A stretch of DNA of 41,742 nt from a virus (taxonomy: Duplodnaviria > Heunggongvirae > Uroviricota > Caudoviricetes), in the IMG/VR virus record IMGVR_UViG_2541047836_000006; one strand, given 5' to 3'. Within the stretch, counting starts at the first letter, position 1. Every line of letters begins with the position of its first letter. The position numbers and the translations under genes were made by a program. Positions 6,914-41,742 of the stretch are shown here, in pieces. Under the pieces are notes generated by a model, which had not been told where the DNA came from, did not search any database, and was given only the letters and a program-made list of their open reading frames with translations.

Positions 6914-7813
6914 TTATTTGATTATTTCTTTTATAAAGACTTCTTTCGGTTGGTATTTTTTATCTGATGATTTGAGCTGGTACGTTATTGTTATATCAGC
7001 ACGTACAGAAAATTTACCTGCAAAATCTGATGGGTTTACGTTGGGGCCAAGAACCATATTTACTCTTCGATCTATTAATCCAGGGATAACAGCAGCCCAA
7101 CCTTTCTCTGGATTGTCGAGGTCTAATGCACGGATTTCAACATCAACATCAAAATGATCCTGAGTATATGACTCTGGTGTGAAGACAACTTCAGTTGGGG
7201 CTTTTTTAATGGTTTCAGCGGGAATGGTCACTGTACCACCCCCTGTACCTATGACCATCGTAGATCCTTCGTCTGCCCTAGCTGGGGCAAGCGTCTTAAT
7301 GGAACTTTTGGCAAGAGTCTTCTTATTGGTTACCGTGCTTTCTATGATTGCTTGAAGACGGTCAGGTGAAATATTAGCCTCACCGGCACCAATATTGATG
7401 ATTGTATTGTTATTTGCTTCAAAGTGGGAGGTGTTGCTTGGAGCCATAGCCTTAGTTGCTAGAACTAAGCCATATCCAACCAGACCAATAACAACAGCAC
7501 CAACGAGAGCGTTTCTCATTTTCCCATTTCCGATCTTTGCATGAGCGCCAGCAAGAAACTTGTCCATTTCTTCTTGGCTACCAAAGAGGAGTTTAATAAC
7601 AATATCTTCATAAAGGCTTCCTGCTTCTAATCGCGCAACATGCACCGATATATCAAGGATATTAGCCCCTGTCAGTTCCTGCAAAACACCTTCTGATTGT
7701 TTTGCGATGGCCTCCCACCCTTGAAGGGAGGTAATCACATCTTTGATGCTTACAGGTTCTTTAGTTGAATAATATATGTTTTCGGTAAAGGTTAAAGATA
7801 ATTCTTGGGACAT
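6914..7813 (-). CDS. Uncharacterised single-pass membrane protein in the immunity-region accessory slot (rexAB position); candidate superinfection-exclusion/abortive-infection protein
   Basis: 299-aa ORF with SD GAGGG upstream of ATG (7811-7813); central hydrophobic helix ALVGAVVIGLVGYGLVLATKAMA; co-oriented with and downstream of cI; own terminator; AT-rich; no similarity to any protein I recognise. Confidence 0.8.
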   Translation of the reverse strand: MSQELSLTFTENIYYSTKEPVSIKDVITSLQGWEAIAKQSEGVLQELTGANILDISVHVARLEAGSLYEDIVIKLLFGSQEEMDKFLAGAHAKIGNGKMRNALVGAVVIGLVGYGLVLATKAMAPSNTSHFEANNNTIINIGAGEANISPDRLQAIIESTVTNKKTLAKSSIKTLAPARADEGSTMVIGTGGGTVTIPAETIKKAPTEVVFTPESYTQDHFDVDVEIRALDLDNPEKGWAAVIPGLIDRRVNMVLGPNVNPSDFAGKFSVRADITITYQLKSSDKKYQPKEVFIKEIIK

Positions 7814-7942
7814 CCGAGCCCTCGCTGTTTCTTTCGATTTGCTGTGTTAAGCTAATATTTTAATATCCATGTTTCTGTTTGCTTGCAGTGTGTTTCTCAC
7901 CACCATCCAAACGTACTGGTTACTAGCTATGTGATGATGAAG

Positions 7943-8650
7943 TCATGAACTTTTCAGCCATTCCCTGGCCTCGATGTCATCTAGGTGGCGAGATTGCTTC
8001 AGAATACCAGCTACATACTCCACCTTTGCTACTTGATGATAAGGCAACGTTATTGGCCTGTGGTCTTGGTTGATGCTTGTAAATTGGTATTCTCCGTCTC
8101 TGTCATAGCCAAGAACCTTGATCATGTTGTGCCCTTCAATGGTTCTGACAAACACCTCATCACCTGGGAATACTTTGGTGTTAGGCTCAATGAGTACATA
8201 TTCTCCTGATTTTATTCTGGGCCACATGCTGTCTCCTTTTACACGAAGACCAAAGGCATCTGGATCATCGCTATAAATCTTGAGCCACCCATCGCGCTCT
8301 TCGGTCATCTCGATGGCACCATCAACACCAAGAATTGCCTCACCAACCACGCGCACTAACCCTTTTTTTAATTTGCCAACAATTGAAAAAGTATCTTCAT
8401 CATTCGCTCCATTTAACGAAGTGCCGTGCTGAAGCCAAACAACATCAACGTTTAGAAATTTCGCAAGCGCATTCATTTTTTCCTGGCGTGGTAAAGACTC
8501 AGCATTAAACCATTTGCTAACGCCTTTGGACGAAAGAGAAAGGGCACGGGCTATGGCCATTCCCCTACCATGTTCATCAAGACCAGCTTCTTTACAGGCT
8601 TGCGCTAGCCGCTGGGCGAATTCTTTGCGCACTTTTTCATTCTGAACCAT
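7943..8650 (-). CDS. cI: CI-type prophage repressor (HTH N-domain plus LexA/S24-like self-cleaving C-domain)
   Basis: 235-aa ORF divergent from cro; C-terminal …FGLRVKGDSMWPRIKSGEYVLIEP… carries the S24 peptidase Ser/Lys pattern (GDSM…K); not the lambda or P22 repressor sequence. Confidence 0.9.
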   Translation of the reverse strand: MVQNEKVRKEFAQRLAQACKEAGLDEHGRGMAIARALSLSSKGVSKWFNAESLPRQEKMNALAKFLNVDVVWLQHGTSLNGANDEDTFSIVGKLKKGLVRVVGEAILGVDGAIEMTEERDGWLKIYSDDPDAFGLRVKGDSMWPRIKSGEYVLIEPNTKVFPGDEVFVRTIEGHNMIKVLGYDRDGEYQFTSINQDHRPITLPYHQVAKVEYVAGILKQSRHLDDIEAREWLKSS

Positions 8651-38348: not shown

Positions 38349-39376
38349 TTTGTGGAGTGAATATGGCAGTACAGATTTCAGGTGTGCTGAAAGACGGTGC
38401 AGGAAAACCGATACAGAACTGCACCATTCAGCTCAAAGCAAAACGTAACAGCACCACAGTTGTGGTGAACACGGTGGCCTCAGAAAATCCGGATGAAGCC
38501 GGACGTTACAGCATGGATGTTGAGTATGGCCAGTACAGCGTCGCCCTGCTGGTTGAAGGTTTTCCGCCTTCACATGCCGGGACCATCACCGTGTATGAGG
38601 ATTCTAAGCCGGGGACATTGAATGATTTTCTGGGCGCTGCAACAGAAGATGATGTTTGTCCGGAGGCACTGTATCGTTTTGAAAAGATGGTGGAAGAGGC
38701 GGCACGCAACGCTGAAGCCGCCTCTCAGAGCGCAGCGGCAGCAAAGAAATCAGAAACAGCAGCGGCATCGTCCAGGAACGCGGCGAAAACATCAGAGACG
38801 AATGCAGGTAACAGCGCGAAAGCGGCAGCTTCTTCAAAAACAGCCGCACAAAACGCAGCAACAGCGGCAGAACGTTCAGAGACAAATGCCCGTGCGTCAG
38901 AAGAAGCCTCCGCAGACAGTGAAGAGGCTTCCCGCCGTAATGCAGAGTCAGCCGCTGAAAATGCCGGAGTCGCCACCACAAAAGCGCGGGAGGCCGCAGC
39001 AGACGCAACAAAGGCCGGGCAGAAAAAGGATGAGGCTCTGTCGGCAGCGACACGAGCTGAAAAGGCGGCAGACCGCGCAGAAGCCGCAGCGGAAGTGACT
39101 GCAGAGCCCTGTGCGAATATAGTGCCGCCGCTGCCTGATGTGTGGATACCGTTTAACGATTCACTGGATATGATTACGGGTTTTTCGCCATCTTATAAAA
39201 AGATAGTTATTGGTGACGATGAAATAACAATGCCAGGCGACAAGATTGTTAAGTTTAAACGTGCTTCAACAGCAACGTATATTAATAAGTCCGGCCAACT
39301 CAAGCTTGCTGAAGTTGACGAACCGCGATTTGAGCGCGATGGCTTATTGATTGAAGGACAGGGTAATGACTCCAAC

Positions 39377-39880
39377 TTATTGATAGTGTTTTATGTTCAG
39401 ATAATGCCCGATGACTTTGTCATGCAGCTCCACCGATTTTGAGAACGACAGCGACTTCCGTCCCAGCCGTGCCAGGTGCTGCCTCAGATTCAGGTTATGC
39501 CGCTCAATTCGCTGCGTATATCGCTTGCTGATTACGTGCAGCTTTCCCTTCAGGCGGGATTCATACAGCGGCCAGCCATCCGTCATCCATATCACCACGT
39601 CAAAGGGTGACAGCAGGCTCATAAGACGCCCCAGCGTCGCCATAGTGCGTTCACCGAATACGTGCGCAACAACCGTCTTCCGGAGCCTGTCATACGCGTA
39701 AAACAGCCAGCGCTGGCGCGATTTAGCCCCGACGTATCCCCACTGTTCGTCCATTTCCGCGCAGACGATGACGTCACTGCCCGGCTGTATGCGCGAGGTT
39801 ACCGACTGCGGCCTGAGTTTTTTAAATGGCGGAAAATCGTGTTGAGGCCAACGCCCATAATGCGGGCGGTTGCCCGGCAT
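39377..39880 (-). CDS. insB: IS1 InsB (transposase catalytic part, expressed as InsAB' by -1 frameshift)
   Basis: 167-aa ORF …[59 protein letters not shown]… matching IS1 InsB; overlaps the insA 3' end. Confidence 0.85.
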
Positions 39881-40074
39881 CCAACGCCATTCATGGCCAT
39901 ATCAATGATTTTCTGGTGCGTACCGGGTTGAGAAGCGGTGTAAGTGAACTGCAGTTGCCATGTTTTACGGCAGTGAGAGCAGAGATAGCGCTGATGTCCG
40001 GCGGTGCTTTTGCCGTTACGCACCACCCCGTCAGTAGCTGAACAGGAGGGACAGCTGATAGAAACAGAAGCCAC
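39799..40074 (-). CDS. insA: IS1 InsA (transposition repressor / N-terminal part of InsAB' transposase)
   Basis: 91-aa protein [91 protein letters not shown], the canonical IS1 InsA. Confidence 0.9.
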
Positions 40075-41157
40075 TGGAGCACCTCAAAAACACCATCATA
40101 CACTAAATCAGTAAGTTGGCAGCATCACCGAAGGACAGAGGACAAATTATCTGAGGAACTCAAATAAACCAGACTCATGGACTGTTCATTCCGCACTGAA
40201 TAAAACATTTGGCACTGATAAACAGGGGTTCAATTATGCCACGGTGACACCCACGGAAAGTATAGTGGGAACAACAGGTGGCTATACTGTGCATGGTGTG
40301 GTTGCAGCAGACAGATTCCCGCTGGCAAGTGGTGAATGTTTCACTTTTTCGTGCCGGGTTAAAGGCGCTAAAGCACGATGCAGGTTAAGAGTTTCAGTTA
40401 TTATTGGTGGAACAGATACCTTCTCTGCTGACTCTTATCTTGATCTGGATACCCGGATCGCAACAGTAAGCGGTAATACATCCCTTATAACAGCCAAAGC
40501 TGAACAACAGGGCGAGTGGACCTACTATGAGGCCACTTATACAGCTAATACGGACATTGATACCGTTAACTGTGCTTTTTATATGACAAATAAAATAAGT
40601 AATGAGCCATTCTATGATGACTCAACATTAACCATGACGACGCCGCAAATTGAACTGGGCAATACGGCATCGTCATTTATTGTAACTACAATGCCAACAA
40701 CACGCGCAAGTGATGTAGTTACTATCCCATCGCAGAATAACCTGTCAACACGGCCTTTTACGGTATTGTGCGAAGTAAGCAGGAACTGGAGTACACCGCC
40801 CAATGTTGCGCCAAGGATATTTGATGTTGGAGGGCACAGTATTGATGATAATTATTTATCGCTGGGGTTTGTTGCAACAGGAAAGATAAGCGCCAACGTA
40901 GGAATGGTTCAGCCACAAATTGCCTCAGATGGAGAAAGGTTCATTGTGGGTGTGAGAGCTAAATCTGATTTATCAGTAAATGCAATATGCAATGGTAATT
41001 ATACAACAAACCTTAATGGTAAAATATTTGGAGTTACAGCAACATCGTACCGGTTTGGTGGGCAGACCGCAGCAGGAACGCGTCATTTGTTTGGACACAT
41101 CAGAAATTTCAGAGTCTGGTTTAAAGAATTAAATGACAGGCAAATCAAGGAGGCAGT

Positions 41158-41436
41158 ATGAAAGATTTAACTTTGAAATTTCCTGGTAACAGAGAGTTTA
41201 AATCCTTCCTGTCATCTCTTGACTGGGAGGAGGATGAAGACCTCCAGAATAAACTGTTAGTCGATGAAATTGGTTTCACCTACACAGAAACAGGGGTAAC
41301 AGAAGAGGGAGAACCTGTCTGTGTCCGGAATGACGGTTATTTTGTCAACATTCGCATTCTTGATGACTTGTTTGATGTTTCTGTATTCTCTGATTATGTC
41401 GTGGAGCTGGAAACACCGCTTCGGGAATGGAGCTGA
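41158..41436 (+). CDS. Hypothetical acidic small protein downstream of tail fibre (possible tail-fibre chaperone or cargo gene)
   Basis: 92-aa ORF with strong SD (AAGGAGG); ATGA overlap with the tail fibre stop; no resemblance to lambda Tfa. Confidence 0.55.
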   Translation: MKDLTLKFPGNREFKSFLSSLDWEEDEDLQNKLLVDEIGFTYTETGVTEEGEPVCVRNDGYFVNIRILDDLFDVSVFSDYVVELETPLREWS

Positions 41437-41448
41437 AAGGAGGAAATA

Positions 41449-41742
41449 ATGGATATAAGCCCCTTACTTCATGCACTTTGTGCTGTGGCTGCGCAGATAC
41501 TGGTTGGTCTTTTTACCGGAAACTGGGCTTACGGAGCGATAGCCGGTTGTACGTTCTTCATTGCGCGTGAACATACCCAGGCAGAATATCGCTGGATTGA
41601 AATGTTCGGGCATGGCAAGCGAATGAATATGCCGTGGTGGGGCGGTTTTGATCCGCGAGCTTGGGATGTGGCAAGCCTGATGGATTTTGCTGTGCCGGTG
41701 GTGGCGTGTCTGCTGGTCTGGCTGTTGGTTAATCGTGGGTGA
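41449..41742 (+). CDS. Hypothetical small integral membrane protein (about 3 predicted TM segments)
   Basis: 97-aa ORF with strong SD (GGAGGAAATAATG); hydrophobic stretches ALCAVAAQILVGLFTG, AYGAIAGCTFFIA and LMDFAVPVVACLLVWLLV; stop at window end. Confidence 0.55.
   Translation: MDISPLLHALCAVAAQILVGLFTGNWAYGAIAGCTFFIAREHTQAEYRWIEMFGHGKRMNMPWWGGFDPRAWDVASLMDFAVPVVACLLVWLLVNRG

Follow-up and report, generated by a model that had tools for sequence, protein, structure and literature searches.

The window, by which we mean the whole 41,742-nucleotide stretch of IMG/VR virus record IMGVR_UViG_2541047836_000006, ends with two small genes, orf92 and orf97, which are real, conserved and under purifying selection (dN/dS 0.27-0.41 for orf92 and 0-0.25 for orf97). 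Both lie far beyond chance, because they match PHROG families, have hundreds of homologues, show these dN/dS values and encode proteins with confident predicted folds. The host element is a phage-21-like (Jouyvirus) lambdoid prophage, of which the two are genuine late-operon genes. The reading that we favor, with somewhat better than even confidence, is that the orf92 product is a companion acting on the LamG-type side tail fibre encoded upstream, and that orf97 is separately inherited cargo whose product would act at the inner membrane. The two genes are not a functional pair, and treating them as a unit is misleading because they differ in GC content (42% in orf92 and 53% in orf97, with 43% in the fibre module), taxonomic spread and evolutionary rate; in lambdoid phages, orf97 is 94% identical where the orf92 copies are only 50% identical. 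The original prediction, made from the letters of the window, had offered alternatives for each gene; these can now be told apart, and two of them, unrelated cargo for orf92 and a Cor-like role for orf97, are given up.

Scans of both proteins against Pfam, NCBIfam and PADLOC gave no significant match, and profile searches against PDB sequences returned only E-values of 0.21 and 0.71. The PHROG families phrog_1361, phrog_18574 and phrog_1443, to which the two proteins belong or are related, are all listed as 'unknown function'.

The locus and its interrupted side tail fibre

The 3' end of the window holds the following features:

38363..39361, + strand: 5' part of the side tail fibre gene, with a phage_tail_N domain and an Ala-rich coiled coil; cut by IS1
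39362..40129, - strand: IS1, 768 bp, with insA/insB; the match to the fibre gene without insertion breaks off exactly here, and the terminal repeats were read directly
40130..41161, + strand: 3' part of the side tail fibre gene, with a GTA-spike/CBM-like domain and a LamG/ConA-like domain
41147..41153, + strand: Shine-Dalgarno sequence AAGGAGG of orf92, inside the end of the fibre gene; read directly
41158..41436, + strand: orf92, 92 aa, ATG start, family phrog_1361, proposed fibre accessory protein
41437..41443, + strand: Shine-Dalgarno sequence AAGGAGG of orf97, in the 12-nt gap past the orf92 stop; read directly
41449..41742, + strand: orf97, 97 aa, ATG start, family phrog_1443

The 9-bp target duplication of the IS1, GAAGGACAG, was read directly at 39353-39361 and 40130-40138. 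An alignment to phage 1H12 puts the true ATG of the fibre gene at 38363; the DNA of the 5' part is 100% identical to the intact 673-aa fibre gene of that phage (3897-5918 of L003). The 5' part matches PF08400 (E 8e-68) and also phrog_1419. In the 3' part, residues 12-155 of the C-terminal fragment match NF048003 with 46 bits (cut-off 36), a phage head-spike/GTA spike fibre domain whose name RefSeq gives to the intact gene; weak matches to CBM_4_9 and Laminin_G_3 were found as well, together with phrog_1419 at E 5e-91. At the C-terminus, fibres of T5-like, T1-like and other phages share 35-56% identity with that of the window. Peptidase_S74 (PF13884) was not found in the C-terminal part of the window fibre by the Pfam and NCBIfam scans; in other loci, it was seen only in an optional third gene that follows orf92.

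The sizes and starts of the two ORFs, as originally predicted, match the ORF list. Both had been said to have strong Shine-Dalgarno sequences at tight spacing, and AAGGAGG indeed precedes both, 4 nt from the ATG of orf92 and 5 nt from that of orf97. The ATGA overlap between orf92 and the fibre gene was likewise read directly (41158-41161), the start codon (41158-41160) sharing two bases with the fibre stop codon TGA (41159-41161). The final base of the window is the end of the orf97 stop codon. Because many IMG/VR contigs terminate 3 nt past this same stop codon, the window end appears to be the boundary set by a prophage caller, and the earlier placement near the right end of the prophage is to be qualified to that extent. 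Complete relatives show what lies beyond: in one arrangement, sitDCBA follows orf92 and orf97 on the opposite strand, and in the other, dinI and then host genes follow.

orf92 and the LamG-type fibre module

The orf92 product is acidic, as had been noticed (pI 4.05; 22 D/E against 8 K/R), and matches phrog_1361 over positions 1-91 of 92 (E 1.6e-39). It had also been said not to resemble lambda Tfa, and no profile of the Tfa type (Caudo_TAP PF02413 or DUF4376) was matched in the Pfam or NCBIfam scans; a Tfa-type assignment by sequence is rejected on these grounds. At E<=1, Pfam returned LUD_dom alone (E 0.1, insignificant) and NCBIfam returned nothing. The fold is confidently predicted as alpha/beta, in the order beta-alpha-alpha-beta-beta, and has no significant match to any solved fold, chaperones included; a Foldseek search of BFVD found as structural relatives only small uncharacterised phage proteins. 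The longest homologues have 150 aa, probably as a result of mis-called start codons.

In every locus inspected or surveyed, orf92 lies directly 3' of a fibre gene with the same C-terminal module of ~300 aa, which is composed of a CBM/GTA-spike-like part and LamG; the N-termini of these fibres differ between phages. Homologues of orf92 occur in 144 of 50,697 phage records, and among the matches listed with annotation, the orf92 match reaches into the end of a gene annotated as a tail, side or lateral tail fibre. The loci checked directly are those of lambdoid prophages, a non-lambdoid siphovirus prophage, the phage-plasmid PhiR41_1, the T5-like phages Stokescottia and IrisVonRoten, KarlJaspers (Drexlerviridae) and the 50.8-kb phage MatMar. 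The adjacency holds on at least four unrelated phage backbones, virulent phages included, and the match annotations for Seuratvirus and Dhillonvirus indicate the same order of fibre and orf92. A LamG-type fibre C-terminus was detected in 102 of 109 distinct IMG/VR contexts, all 102 of which have an orf92-type gene. Nine loci have a divergent 89-aa form that was missed by BLAST (read directly in three of the nine). One LamG fibre without an orf92-like gene was found in Chelativorans (L039). In GC content, orf92 goes with the fibre module and not with orf97.

A more distant case comes from Comamonas, in which a LamG-type fibre gene is followed, across an ATGA overlap, by a gene for a 95-aa protein that matches phrog_18574 at E 2e-11. 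Judged by its profile match, this protein is a remote orf92 homologue in the same position. The link is drawn because both proteins match phrog_18574 (orf92 with E 1.2e-5), and not from the direct hhalign comparison, which was weak (E 0.009, probability 4%). A 72-aa gene ahead of orf97 in Comamonas testosteroni was rejected as a relative of orf92. Co-variation of orf92 with the binding region of the fibre was rejected as well, given that the fibre C-terminus of phage 21 is 35% identical to that of the window and its orf92 93% identical.

Two roles had been proposed for orf92, a non-canonical fibre chaperone and unrelated cargo. The first fits the synteny; the second is ruled out by the linkage to one fibre module, the presence in virulent phages and the ATGA overlap. 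The best reading of these data is that orf92 encodes an accessory protein of a new kind that serves the fibre as assembly chaperone or as structural partner, and activity of this kind is the most likely one for its product. The start of orf92 would be translationally coupled to the stop of a fibre that has no self-cleaving S74 chaperone domain, and the protein would be the obligate companion of a horizontally mobile tail-fibre module and act on that fibre. [quoted passage not shown] The Tfa-like chaperones (lambda Tfa, P2 G, Mu U, T4 gp38/gp57A) are likewise encoded downstream, coupled and moving with the distal module, and orf92 shares with the Tfa type a small and acidic product. With 92 aa, however, that product is about half the size of Tfa and has no sequence match to any of these families in the Pfam and NCBIfam scans, and its partner fibre ends in a LamG/ConA-like domain.

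A possible but doubtful alternative is that orf92 encodes a structural adaptor, which binds the LamG end of a proximal fibre and docks a second, distal receptor-binding protein in a branched or two-part fibre. In most phages, a third gene starts 10-15 nt past orf92, and the products of these third genes, either S74-type (346 or 576 aa) or distal-fibre proteins (227-234 aa), are very unlike in their bodies but share the N-terminus M(A/V)T.TVIP.DI..LK. Such a pattern suits an adaptor no less than a chaperone. When this N-terminus was used in tblastn, it was found directly after orf92 in JenP1, tonn, tunus, tunzivis, SLUR29, EC125, JLBYU16, MartyMcPhage, Tritos, 2G7b and PhiR49_1, i.e., in every record, among the matches listed, that gave both positions. 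An N-terminal docking peptide on the distal protein is established for LtfB of DT57C and gp15 of phiEco32 (PMC4728585), and according to the BASEL authors, Gp24 of IrisVonRoten connects to a proximal fibre (PMC11990801). The lateral-fibre loci of DT57C and DT571/2 (LtfA/LtfB) and of phiEco32 (gp14/gp15) also consist of several genes and encode a distal protein with a conserved N-terminal segment, and orf92 homologues are present in T5-like lateral-fibre loci, after LtfC and the proximal fibre (PMC4728585, PMC10713586). However, ltfA and ltfB of DT57C are not separated by a small gene, branched fibres of its type need no small intervening protein (PMC4728585), and the window has no distal fibre gene. 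For the clade of the window, an adaptor would imply that the distal gene has been lost and that orf92 is partnerless or serves another distal protein. At least three lineages without a third gene nevertheless keep orf92 intact and under purifying selection (the window with phage 21, L010 with PhiR41_1, and L224); the same orf92 variant occurs with and without the third fibre gene (L147 versus L224), and in two other clades the third gene is missing and orf92 is kept under purifying selection. Moreover, none of the homologues seen was fused to a fibre protein. A chaperone or bound partner of the LamG fibre remains the role that we prefer for orf92.

orf97, a family of predicted three-helix membrane proteins

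The orf97 product matches phrog_1443 over positions 1-96 of 97 (E 2.4e-58); in the Pfam, NCBIfam, PADLOC and PHROG scans, only this family and phrog_34165, both of unknown function, were found. About three hydrophobic segments had been recognized in the sequence, and AlphaFold2 places helices at 4-23, 26-52 and 74-96 (mean pLDDT 93). The absence of a lipobox is also borne out: Cys11 is preceded by H-A-L, and there is no basic N-terminal region (MDISPLLHALC). The predicted topology is N-in, with a TM1-TM2 hairpin, a basic cytoplasmic loop, TM3 and C-out. The loop of 34 residues is almost invariant (R40-EHTQAEYRWI ... GKR.NMPWWGGFD.R.W72) and has, across the family, a mean of 5.5 K/R at positions 40-73 against <=0.5 elsewhere. 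Conserved polar residues (H8, Q16, D79) lie inside the predicted membrane helices, and the C-terminus (...LLVNRG) follows directly after TM3. The family, for which Pfam has no model, comprises 577 clusters at 90% identity and at least 424 at 50%, all of 58-146 aa, with identities of 57-65% across bacterial classes. None of the 1.84 billion cluster representatives searched contained a fusion of orf97 to a larger domain, and there is therefore no 'Rosetta stone' clue.

Hosts of the family include Escherichia, Aeromonas, Comamonas, Leclercia, Chelativorans, sphingomonads, Halomonas and Desulfovibrio. In alpha-, beta-, gamma- and deltaproteobacterial prophages, orf97 is the last gene behind very unlike receptor-binding genes. 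The preceding genes are of at least seven types: LamG fibres, S74 fibres, a Tail_spike_N protein, DUF4376 proteins, a giant gpJ, a gene that precedes a DGR accessory gene (bAvd), and fibres of the P2 type or the genes for their assembly. In phiHAP-1, the homologue has the tail-fibre assembly gene on one side and the sheath gene on the other, a site that we take to correspond to the Z/fun position of P2. Stand-alone chromosomal copies with conserved neighborhoods occur in Aeromonas and sphingomonads; they adjoin housekeeping genes, and the neighborhood is conserved among Aeromonas species. A copy in Silvania adjoins a porin gene and a pyruvate:ferredoxin oxidoreductase gene, and in E. coli BL21, Rac has the same neighbors (ompN, nifJ) at its right end; some of the 'chromosomal' copies may thus be prophage remnants. 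No orf97 was found in the T1-like and T5-like phages that bear the same fibre module and orf92. Partial homologues are present in Aeromonas jumbo phages of ~235 kb, which are presumably virulent.

Beside orf97, neither the window nor phage 1H12 showed a sigma-70-like promoter or a terminator on the + strand; in both regions, the counts were at or below shuffle expectation in a crude scan that leaves room for weak promoters. The gene is closely coupled to the late tail genes, by the 12-nt gap in the window and by ATGA overlaps elsewhere. Its presence is independent of the structural neighbors and extends to other contexts, as in a moron, but no flanking promoter or terminator of its own was found, and with its tight coupling it does not look like a classical autonomous moron.

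The original prediction had pointed to the Cor-like exclusion genes and other cargo that such regions often carry. For orf97, the cargo part is supported by a distribution independent of its neighbors, the gene having varied fibre partners and copies on chromosomes and being missing from the T1-like and T5-like phages; the Cor-like part does not stand, since the protein has no lipobox, is predicted to be polytopic and matches no defence or exclusion family in the scans. Most likely, orf97 is accessory cargo whose product acts at the inner membrane, and an envelope-directed function is the most likely one for it. It is probably not a component of the virion or of its assembly. The gene would be inherited separately, temperate phages carrying it as the last gene of the tail-fibre cluster and some bacteria as a chromosomal gene, and its product might target something conserved in the inner membrane or envelope of the host, e.g., by hindering superinfection or altering the surface.

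Both Llp, a lipoprotein, and Cor block FhuA, the latter at the outer membrane. The genes for Cor (phi80/N15/HK022/T1) and Llp (T5) adjoin tail fibre or receptor-binding genes, as does orf97, whereas the orf97 product has neither signal peptide nor lipobox, is a predicted three-helix inner-membrane protein, is near invariant whatever its receptor-binding neighbor and is also encoded on chromosomes. Homology to Cor or Llp was rejected on the basis of family scans, in which phrog_1443 and phrog_34165 were the only matches. Other small membrane accessory proteins encoded in or at the end of tail clusters, as is orf97, are HK97 gp15, T4 Imm and P22 SieA; no homology to them was detected in the PHROG and PADLOC searches, and orf97 differs in that no promoter of its own was found. 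The Tai/Ati tail-assembly-interference system, which sits upstream of packaging genes, is unrelated and was dropped from the comparison.

The consistent position behind receptor-binding genes could instead mean a late function related to the fibre. It is unlikely, though worth weighing, that orf97 is not cargo and serves such a function, e.g., shielding the infected cell or the progeny from adsorption or from ejection into the producer, or providing membrane support for glycan-binding receptor-binding proteins. Consistent with this, orf97 always comes last behind the genes for receptor binding or fibres, shares their strand and is often translationally coupled, in siphoviruses and myoviruses of four proteobacterial classes; the triad of fibre, orf92-like gene and orf97 is common to Escherichia and Comamonas; no promoter of its own was detected, and the exclusion genes llp and cor adjoin receptor-binding genes too. 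On the other hand, it is missing from virulent phages with the same fibre module, its sequence is near constant beside mutually unrelated receptor-binding proteins, and it stands alone on the chromosomes of Aeromonas and sphingomonads.

A holin or other membrane protein of a lysis cassette is very improbable. Class I holins are also small with three transmembrane helices, as predicted here, and in the Comamonas-type prophages L179, L178 and L004, orf97 lies directly upstream of putative lysis genes (for an endolysin, a spanin pair and a membrane protein, judged from translated sequences only); in the window and other lambdoid phages, it lies behind the tail fibre cluster and not beside the endolysin. 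However, phage 21 and its relatives presumably have a complete lysis cassette elsewhere (S21/R21). The protein has no charged C-terminal tail, its charge being placed in the TM2-TM3 loop, and the length and near invariance of this loop are unlike holins, as is the 57-65% identity across classes; in addition, the chromosomal copies appear to have upstream regions of their own. Slightest of all is the chance that both ORFs are unrelated passengers (morons) that happened to land behind the fibre gene, for although cargo sites are known behind tail-fibre genes and sitABCD cargo follows the pair in relatives, orf92 is strictly linked to one fibre module across unrelated backbones, occurs in virulent phages and overlaps the fibre stop with its start codon. 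Separately inherited cargo acting at the inner membrane is thus retained as the preferred reading of orf97.

Distribution and significance of the two families

Neither family was found described in the literature on the annotation of phage 21, on side fibres with LamG, on exclusion genes close to fibre genes and on SEED/PHROG identifiers, nor in the DT57C, BASEL and Tai papers; the DT57C and BASEL papers do not mention the 92-aa protein, and orf92 has so far been annotated only as 'hypothetical'. Versions of both genes close to those of the window are carried by ~21% of complete E. coli genomes, BL21 included, and ~35% hold DNA close to the orf97 of the window.

A broader view of both families together, which we offer tentatively and with more doubt than belief, is that orf97 represents an ancient membrane-protein family and orf92 a new class of chaperones or adaptors for LamG fibres. 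Within it, orf92 may be specific to LamG-tipped fibres and have to be supplied when such fibres are transplanted. The orf97 family may be an ancient, unrecognised three-helix inner-membrane family that phages of four proteobacterial classes deliberately link to receptor-binding genes; it could be a general effector of the envelope or inner membrane, e.g., blocking genome entry or the synthesis of glycan receptors, and in Aeromonas and sphingomonads the protein may have been put to housekeeping use.

Lateral and side tail fibres set the host range of phages and are swapped in engineering (lambda Stf chimeras, T5-like and T1-like phages). If orf92 is needed as proposed, it must travel with this fibre module in transfers, and the few known families of fibre chaperones or adaptors would gain a new one. 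With a common family, a conserved motif and a repeatable position, orf97 is a cheap candidate for prophage exclusion or envelope modification, and model strains and BASEL phages already carry the relevant genes.

Gene pair and prophage setting

The final 585 bases of the window carry two plus-strand open reading frames, orf92 and orf97, behind a side tail fibre gene that is split by an insertion sequence.

Features at the end of the window
39362-40129: IS1, 768 bp, splitting the side tail fibre gene; 9-bp target duplication at 39353-39361 and 40130-40138
41147-41153, plus strand: AAGGAGG before orf92, read in the sequence
41158-41436, plus strand: orf92, 92 aa; its start codon overlaps the stop codon of the tail-fibre ORF before it (ATGA, 41158-41161)
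41437-41443, plus strand: AAGGAGG before orf97, read in the sequence
41449-41742, plus strand: orf97, 97 aa; the window ends at its stop codon

The positions, the ATGA overlap, the strong Shine-Dalgarno sequences and the acidic 92-aa product (pI 4.05; 22 D/E versus 8 K/R) are all as originally described; the orf97 product is hydrophobic (GRAVY +0.53). Both are real genes, because they match PHROG profiles (orf92 phrog_1361, E 1.6e-39; orf97 phrog_1443, E 2.4e-58), have many homologues, show low dN/dS (0.27-0.41 and 0-0.25, respectively) and yield confident AlphaFold2 models (mean pLDDT 90 and 93). The observation of two small genes after the tail fibre is thereby confirmed. Neither family was described in any paper found by literature searches.

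The late region of the window belongs to a phage-21-like lambdoid prophage. Positions 40244-41742 match phages 1H12, Lambda_ev087 and PhiR47_2 at 100% identity, and over the final 693 bases identity to phage 21 is 94%. In these genomes J is followed by a side tail fibre of 673-686 aa, then orf92, orf97 and, on the opposite strand, sitDCBA; other prophages have dinI and host genes immediately after the gene pair. In phage 21, PhiR47_2 and 1H12 (loci L001, L002 and L003), sitABCD, an iron/manganese ABC transporter operon carried as cargo in the complete relatives, converges about 90 nt past the orf97 stop, and the window stops just short of it. Dozens of IMG/VR prophage contigs (loci L083-L162) end exactly 3 nt beyond the orf97 stop codon, so the end of the window probably reflects where a prophage caller cut at a gene boundary and not the biological end of the element.

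The sequence on either side of IS1 matches the intact fibre gene of 1H12 at 100% identity, so the insertion is recent; it should be polar on the 3' part of the fibre gene, orf92 and orf97. The same fibre gene was hit by IS5 in one E. coli genome and by an IS3-family element in two (H21-H23), and in phage D2 (locus L171, 433-2555) it is broken by three 'mobile element' ORFs, which suggests that the fibre is repeatedly inactivated in prophages.

orf92 and the tail fibre module

The C-terminal 305 residues of the fibre contain a GTA-spike/CBM-like domain (NF048003, 46 bits; cut-off 36) and a LamG/ConA-like match that is weak; scans with Pfam and NCBIfam found no Peptidase_S74 (S74) intramolecular chaperone domain there. 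Searching with the orf92 sequence alone gave just 45 clusters, every one from Escherichia or Shigella, whereas searching with a profile gave 314. By tblastn, 144 phage records contain homologues, with Seuratvirus-like (JenP1, JenP2) and Dhillonvirus phages among the matches listed. In the annotated records among those listed, the match extends into the end of a gene named tail, side or lateral tail fibre.

Loci were inspected directly on unrelated backbones: lambdoid prophages, a non-lambdoid siphovirus prophage (with the gene pair between head and tail genes), T5-like Stokescottia and IrisVonRoten (orf92 after LtfC and the proximal lateral fibre), T1-like KarlJaspers, the 50.8-kb phage MatMar and phage-plasmid PhiR41_1. 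The synteny comparison places orf92 beside the same fibre module throughout; the upstream proteins differ in their N-termini but share 35-56% identity with the window fibre over the final ~300 residues. Among 109 distinct IMG/VR contexts of orf97, scored for fibre type and for an orf92-type gene, a LamG-type fibre was detected upstream in 102, and in all 102 an orf92-type gene separated the fibre from the gene after it; nine loci, counted among the 102, have a divergent 89-aa form that BLAST missed, and three of these loci were read directly. The three-gene arrangement recurs in a betaproteobacterial prophage of Comamonas kerstersii, where a 388-aa LamG-type fibre is followed via an ATGA overlap by a 95-aa gene (phrog_18574, E 2e-11; also matched by orf92, E 1.2e-5) and, again via ATGA, by an orf97 homologue.

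The original prediction had left orf92 as either a non-canonical fibre chaperone or unrelated cargo. Lysogenic-conversion cargo is ruled out by its presence in virulent phages and its translational coupling to the fibre; given its linkage to one fibre module, orf92 is a predicted accessory gene of that module and represents a new family. The only constant partner is a LamG-tipped fibre without an intramolecular chaperone, and we therefore favour reading orf92 as a putative factor for fibre assembly or maturation, or as a distal subunit that stays bound. Pfam and NCBIfam scans found no signature of the lambda-type assembly chaperone Tfa, bearing out the lack of resemblance noted earlier, and structural relatives in BFVD were uncharacterised phage proteins only. 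Co-variation of orf92 with the bulk of the distal fibre was rejected: between phage 21 and the window the fibre C-terminus is 35% identical and orf92 93%, with DNA identity starting about 37 codons ahead of the fibre stop.

Within the fibre-accessory reading, a chaperone and an adaptor for a distal fibre protein are about equally likely. In most phages orf92 is followed by a third gene, whose body is S74-type (346 or 576 aa) or a distal fibre fragment (227-234 aa), for example at loci L165 (5292-6332), L163 (5289-7019), L168 (5292-5987), L016 (7286-7990) and L147 (7307-7990). Its conserved N-terminus, M(A/V)T.TVIP.DI..LK, stands directly after orf92 in all records with both positions listed, and may serve to dock a modular distal fibre. 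It resembles the docking peptides that distal proteins carry in the branched fibres of phages DT57C and phiEco32 (PMC4728585), and an adaptor role is plausible. However, the same orf92 variant occurs with the third gene (L147) and without it (L224), and two further clades, that of the window included, lack the third gene while orf92 remains under purifying selection.

The BASEL paper describes the T-shaped receptor-binding protein Gp24 of IrisVonRoten as connecting to 'a long proximal fiber (Gp23)' (PMC11990801). In the deposited record (locus L170, bas32_0022-0024), bas32_0023 is the 92-aa orf92 homologue and bas32_0022 the long fibre; it seems that the small protein was overlooked, or the genes misnumbered, in PMC11990801. 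The orf92 protein goes unmentioned in the BASEL and DT57C papers.

orf97 as probable separable cargo

The orf97 family comprises 577 clusters at 90% identity (424 at 50%), all of 58-146 aa, with no fusion to another domain seen among the 577; Pfam, NCBIfam and PADLOC gave no matches. In the alignment, variable transmembrane segments flank a nearly invariant core (R40-E-H-T-Q-A-E-Y-R-W-I50, G56, R58, M61-P-W-W-G-G-F-D68 and W72), and conserved polar residues lie inside helices (H8, Q16, D79). Hosts found by genome scan were Escherichia, Aeromonas, Comamonas, Leclercia, Silvania, Acidovorax, Chelativorans, Pigmentiphaga, sphingomonads, Halomonas and Desulfovibrio. The gene occurs either as the last gene after prophage receptor-binding or fibre genes of unrelated types, or alone in the chromosome.

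Genes preceding orf97 in phages and prophages
LamG fibres: Escherichia, Comamonas, Chelativorans
S74 fibres: Escherichia, Desulfovibrio
Tail_spike_N protein: Leclercia
DUF4376 proteins: Halomonas and a contig labelled Pantoea
2,520-aa gpJ: Comamonas
Gene directly upstream of bAvd: Comamonas nitrativorans
P2-type fibre: locus L234 (89% identical), presumably an enterobacterial prophage
Tail-fibre assembly gene (sheath gene follows): phiHAP-1

Accessory gene bAvd belongs to diversity-generating retroelements (DGR). In C. nitrativorans the orf97 homologue (locus L041, 8305-8688; L043 is similar) has a 383-aa gene on one side and a bAvd-like gene on the other, and so appears embedded in a DGR cassette beside a likely variable receptor-binding gene. 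Chromosomal copies adjoin housekeeping genes, among them pirin in several Aeromonas species and, in alphaproteobacteria, genes for PNPase, LigA, AMP nucleosidase, an aspartate-oxidase-like protein, cytidine deaminase or DAHP synthase. The 'chromosomal' Silvania copy (L022/L026/L031, ~7449-8290) adjoins porin and pyruvate:ferredoxin oxidoreductase genes; the same two genes, ompN and nifJ, flank the right end of Rac in E. coli BL21, and the Silvania copy may be a decayed prophage remnant rather than a native gene.

By these comparisons orf97 is separable from the fibre module, given its unrelated prophage contexts, its chromosomal copies, its absence from T1-like and T5-like phages in which both the fibre and orf92 occur, and identities discordant with orf92 (94% for orf97 between lambdoid phages that share only 50% in orf92). 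It is a separate entity that should not be treated as one unit with orf92; its GC content is 53%, versus 42% for orf92 (fibre module, 43%). The cargo reading is the best supported, its independent distribution agreeing with that part of the earlier proposal, and the evidence gathered lends no support to a Cor-like, receptor-blocking mechanism.

Caution comes from tight coupling to late genes and from partial homologues in Aeromonas jumbo phages; simple scans found no promoter or terminator of its own. From its fixed position after receptor-binding genes, orf97 may have a late role linked to the fibre cluster. A holin is unlikely: the gene adjoins lysis-cassette-like genes in Comamonas prophages, but its product has no charged tail at the C-terminus and contains a long, invariant loop, and the gene also has chromosomal copies. 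In these Comamonas-type prophages (L179, 6305-7677; L178, 6258-7524; L004, 6300-7521) the putative lysis cassette, assigned by judgement of translated sequences, directly follows orf97, which therefore marks the tail/lysis module boundary there; the cassette encodes an endolysin-like protein of 140 or 183 aa, coiled-coil proteins with one TM segment and a lipoprotein of 61 aa containing LIAGC.

Prevalence and significance

DNA matching the region was found in 1,903 of 5,426 complete E. coli genomes, and matches to both genes in 1,127 of the 5,426. The Rac prophage of BL21 (locus L177, NZ_CP060121 1376262-1377710) has a truncated LamG-type fibre, then orf92 and orf97 (99% identical), beside a tail-fibre-assembly gene (tfa) remnant and then pinR; BL21 is thus a ready laboratory strain carrying both genes. 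Overall, the hedged original interpretation was supported in part: orf92 is not cargo, and orf97 is a widespread, predicted small inner-membrane protein behaving as separable cargo at the end of the tail-fibre cluster. The finding is ordinary in kind and yields two well-defined, easily testable leads.
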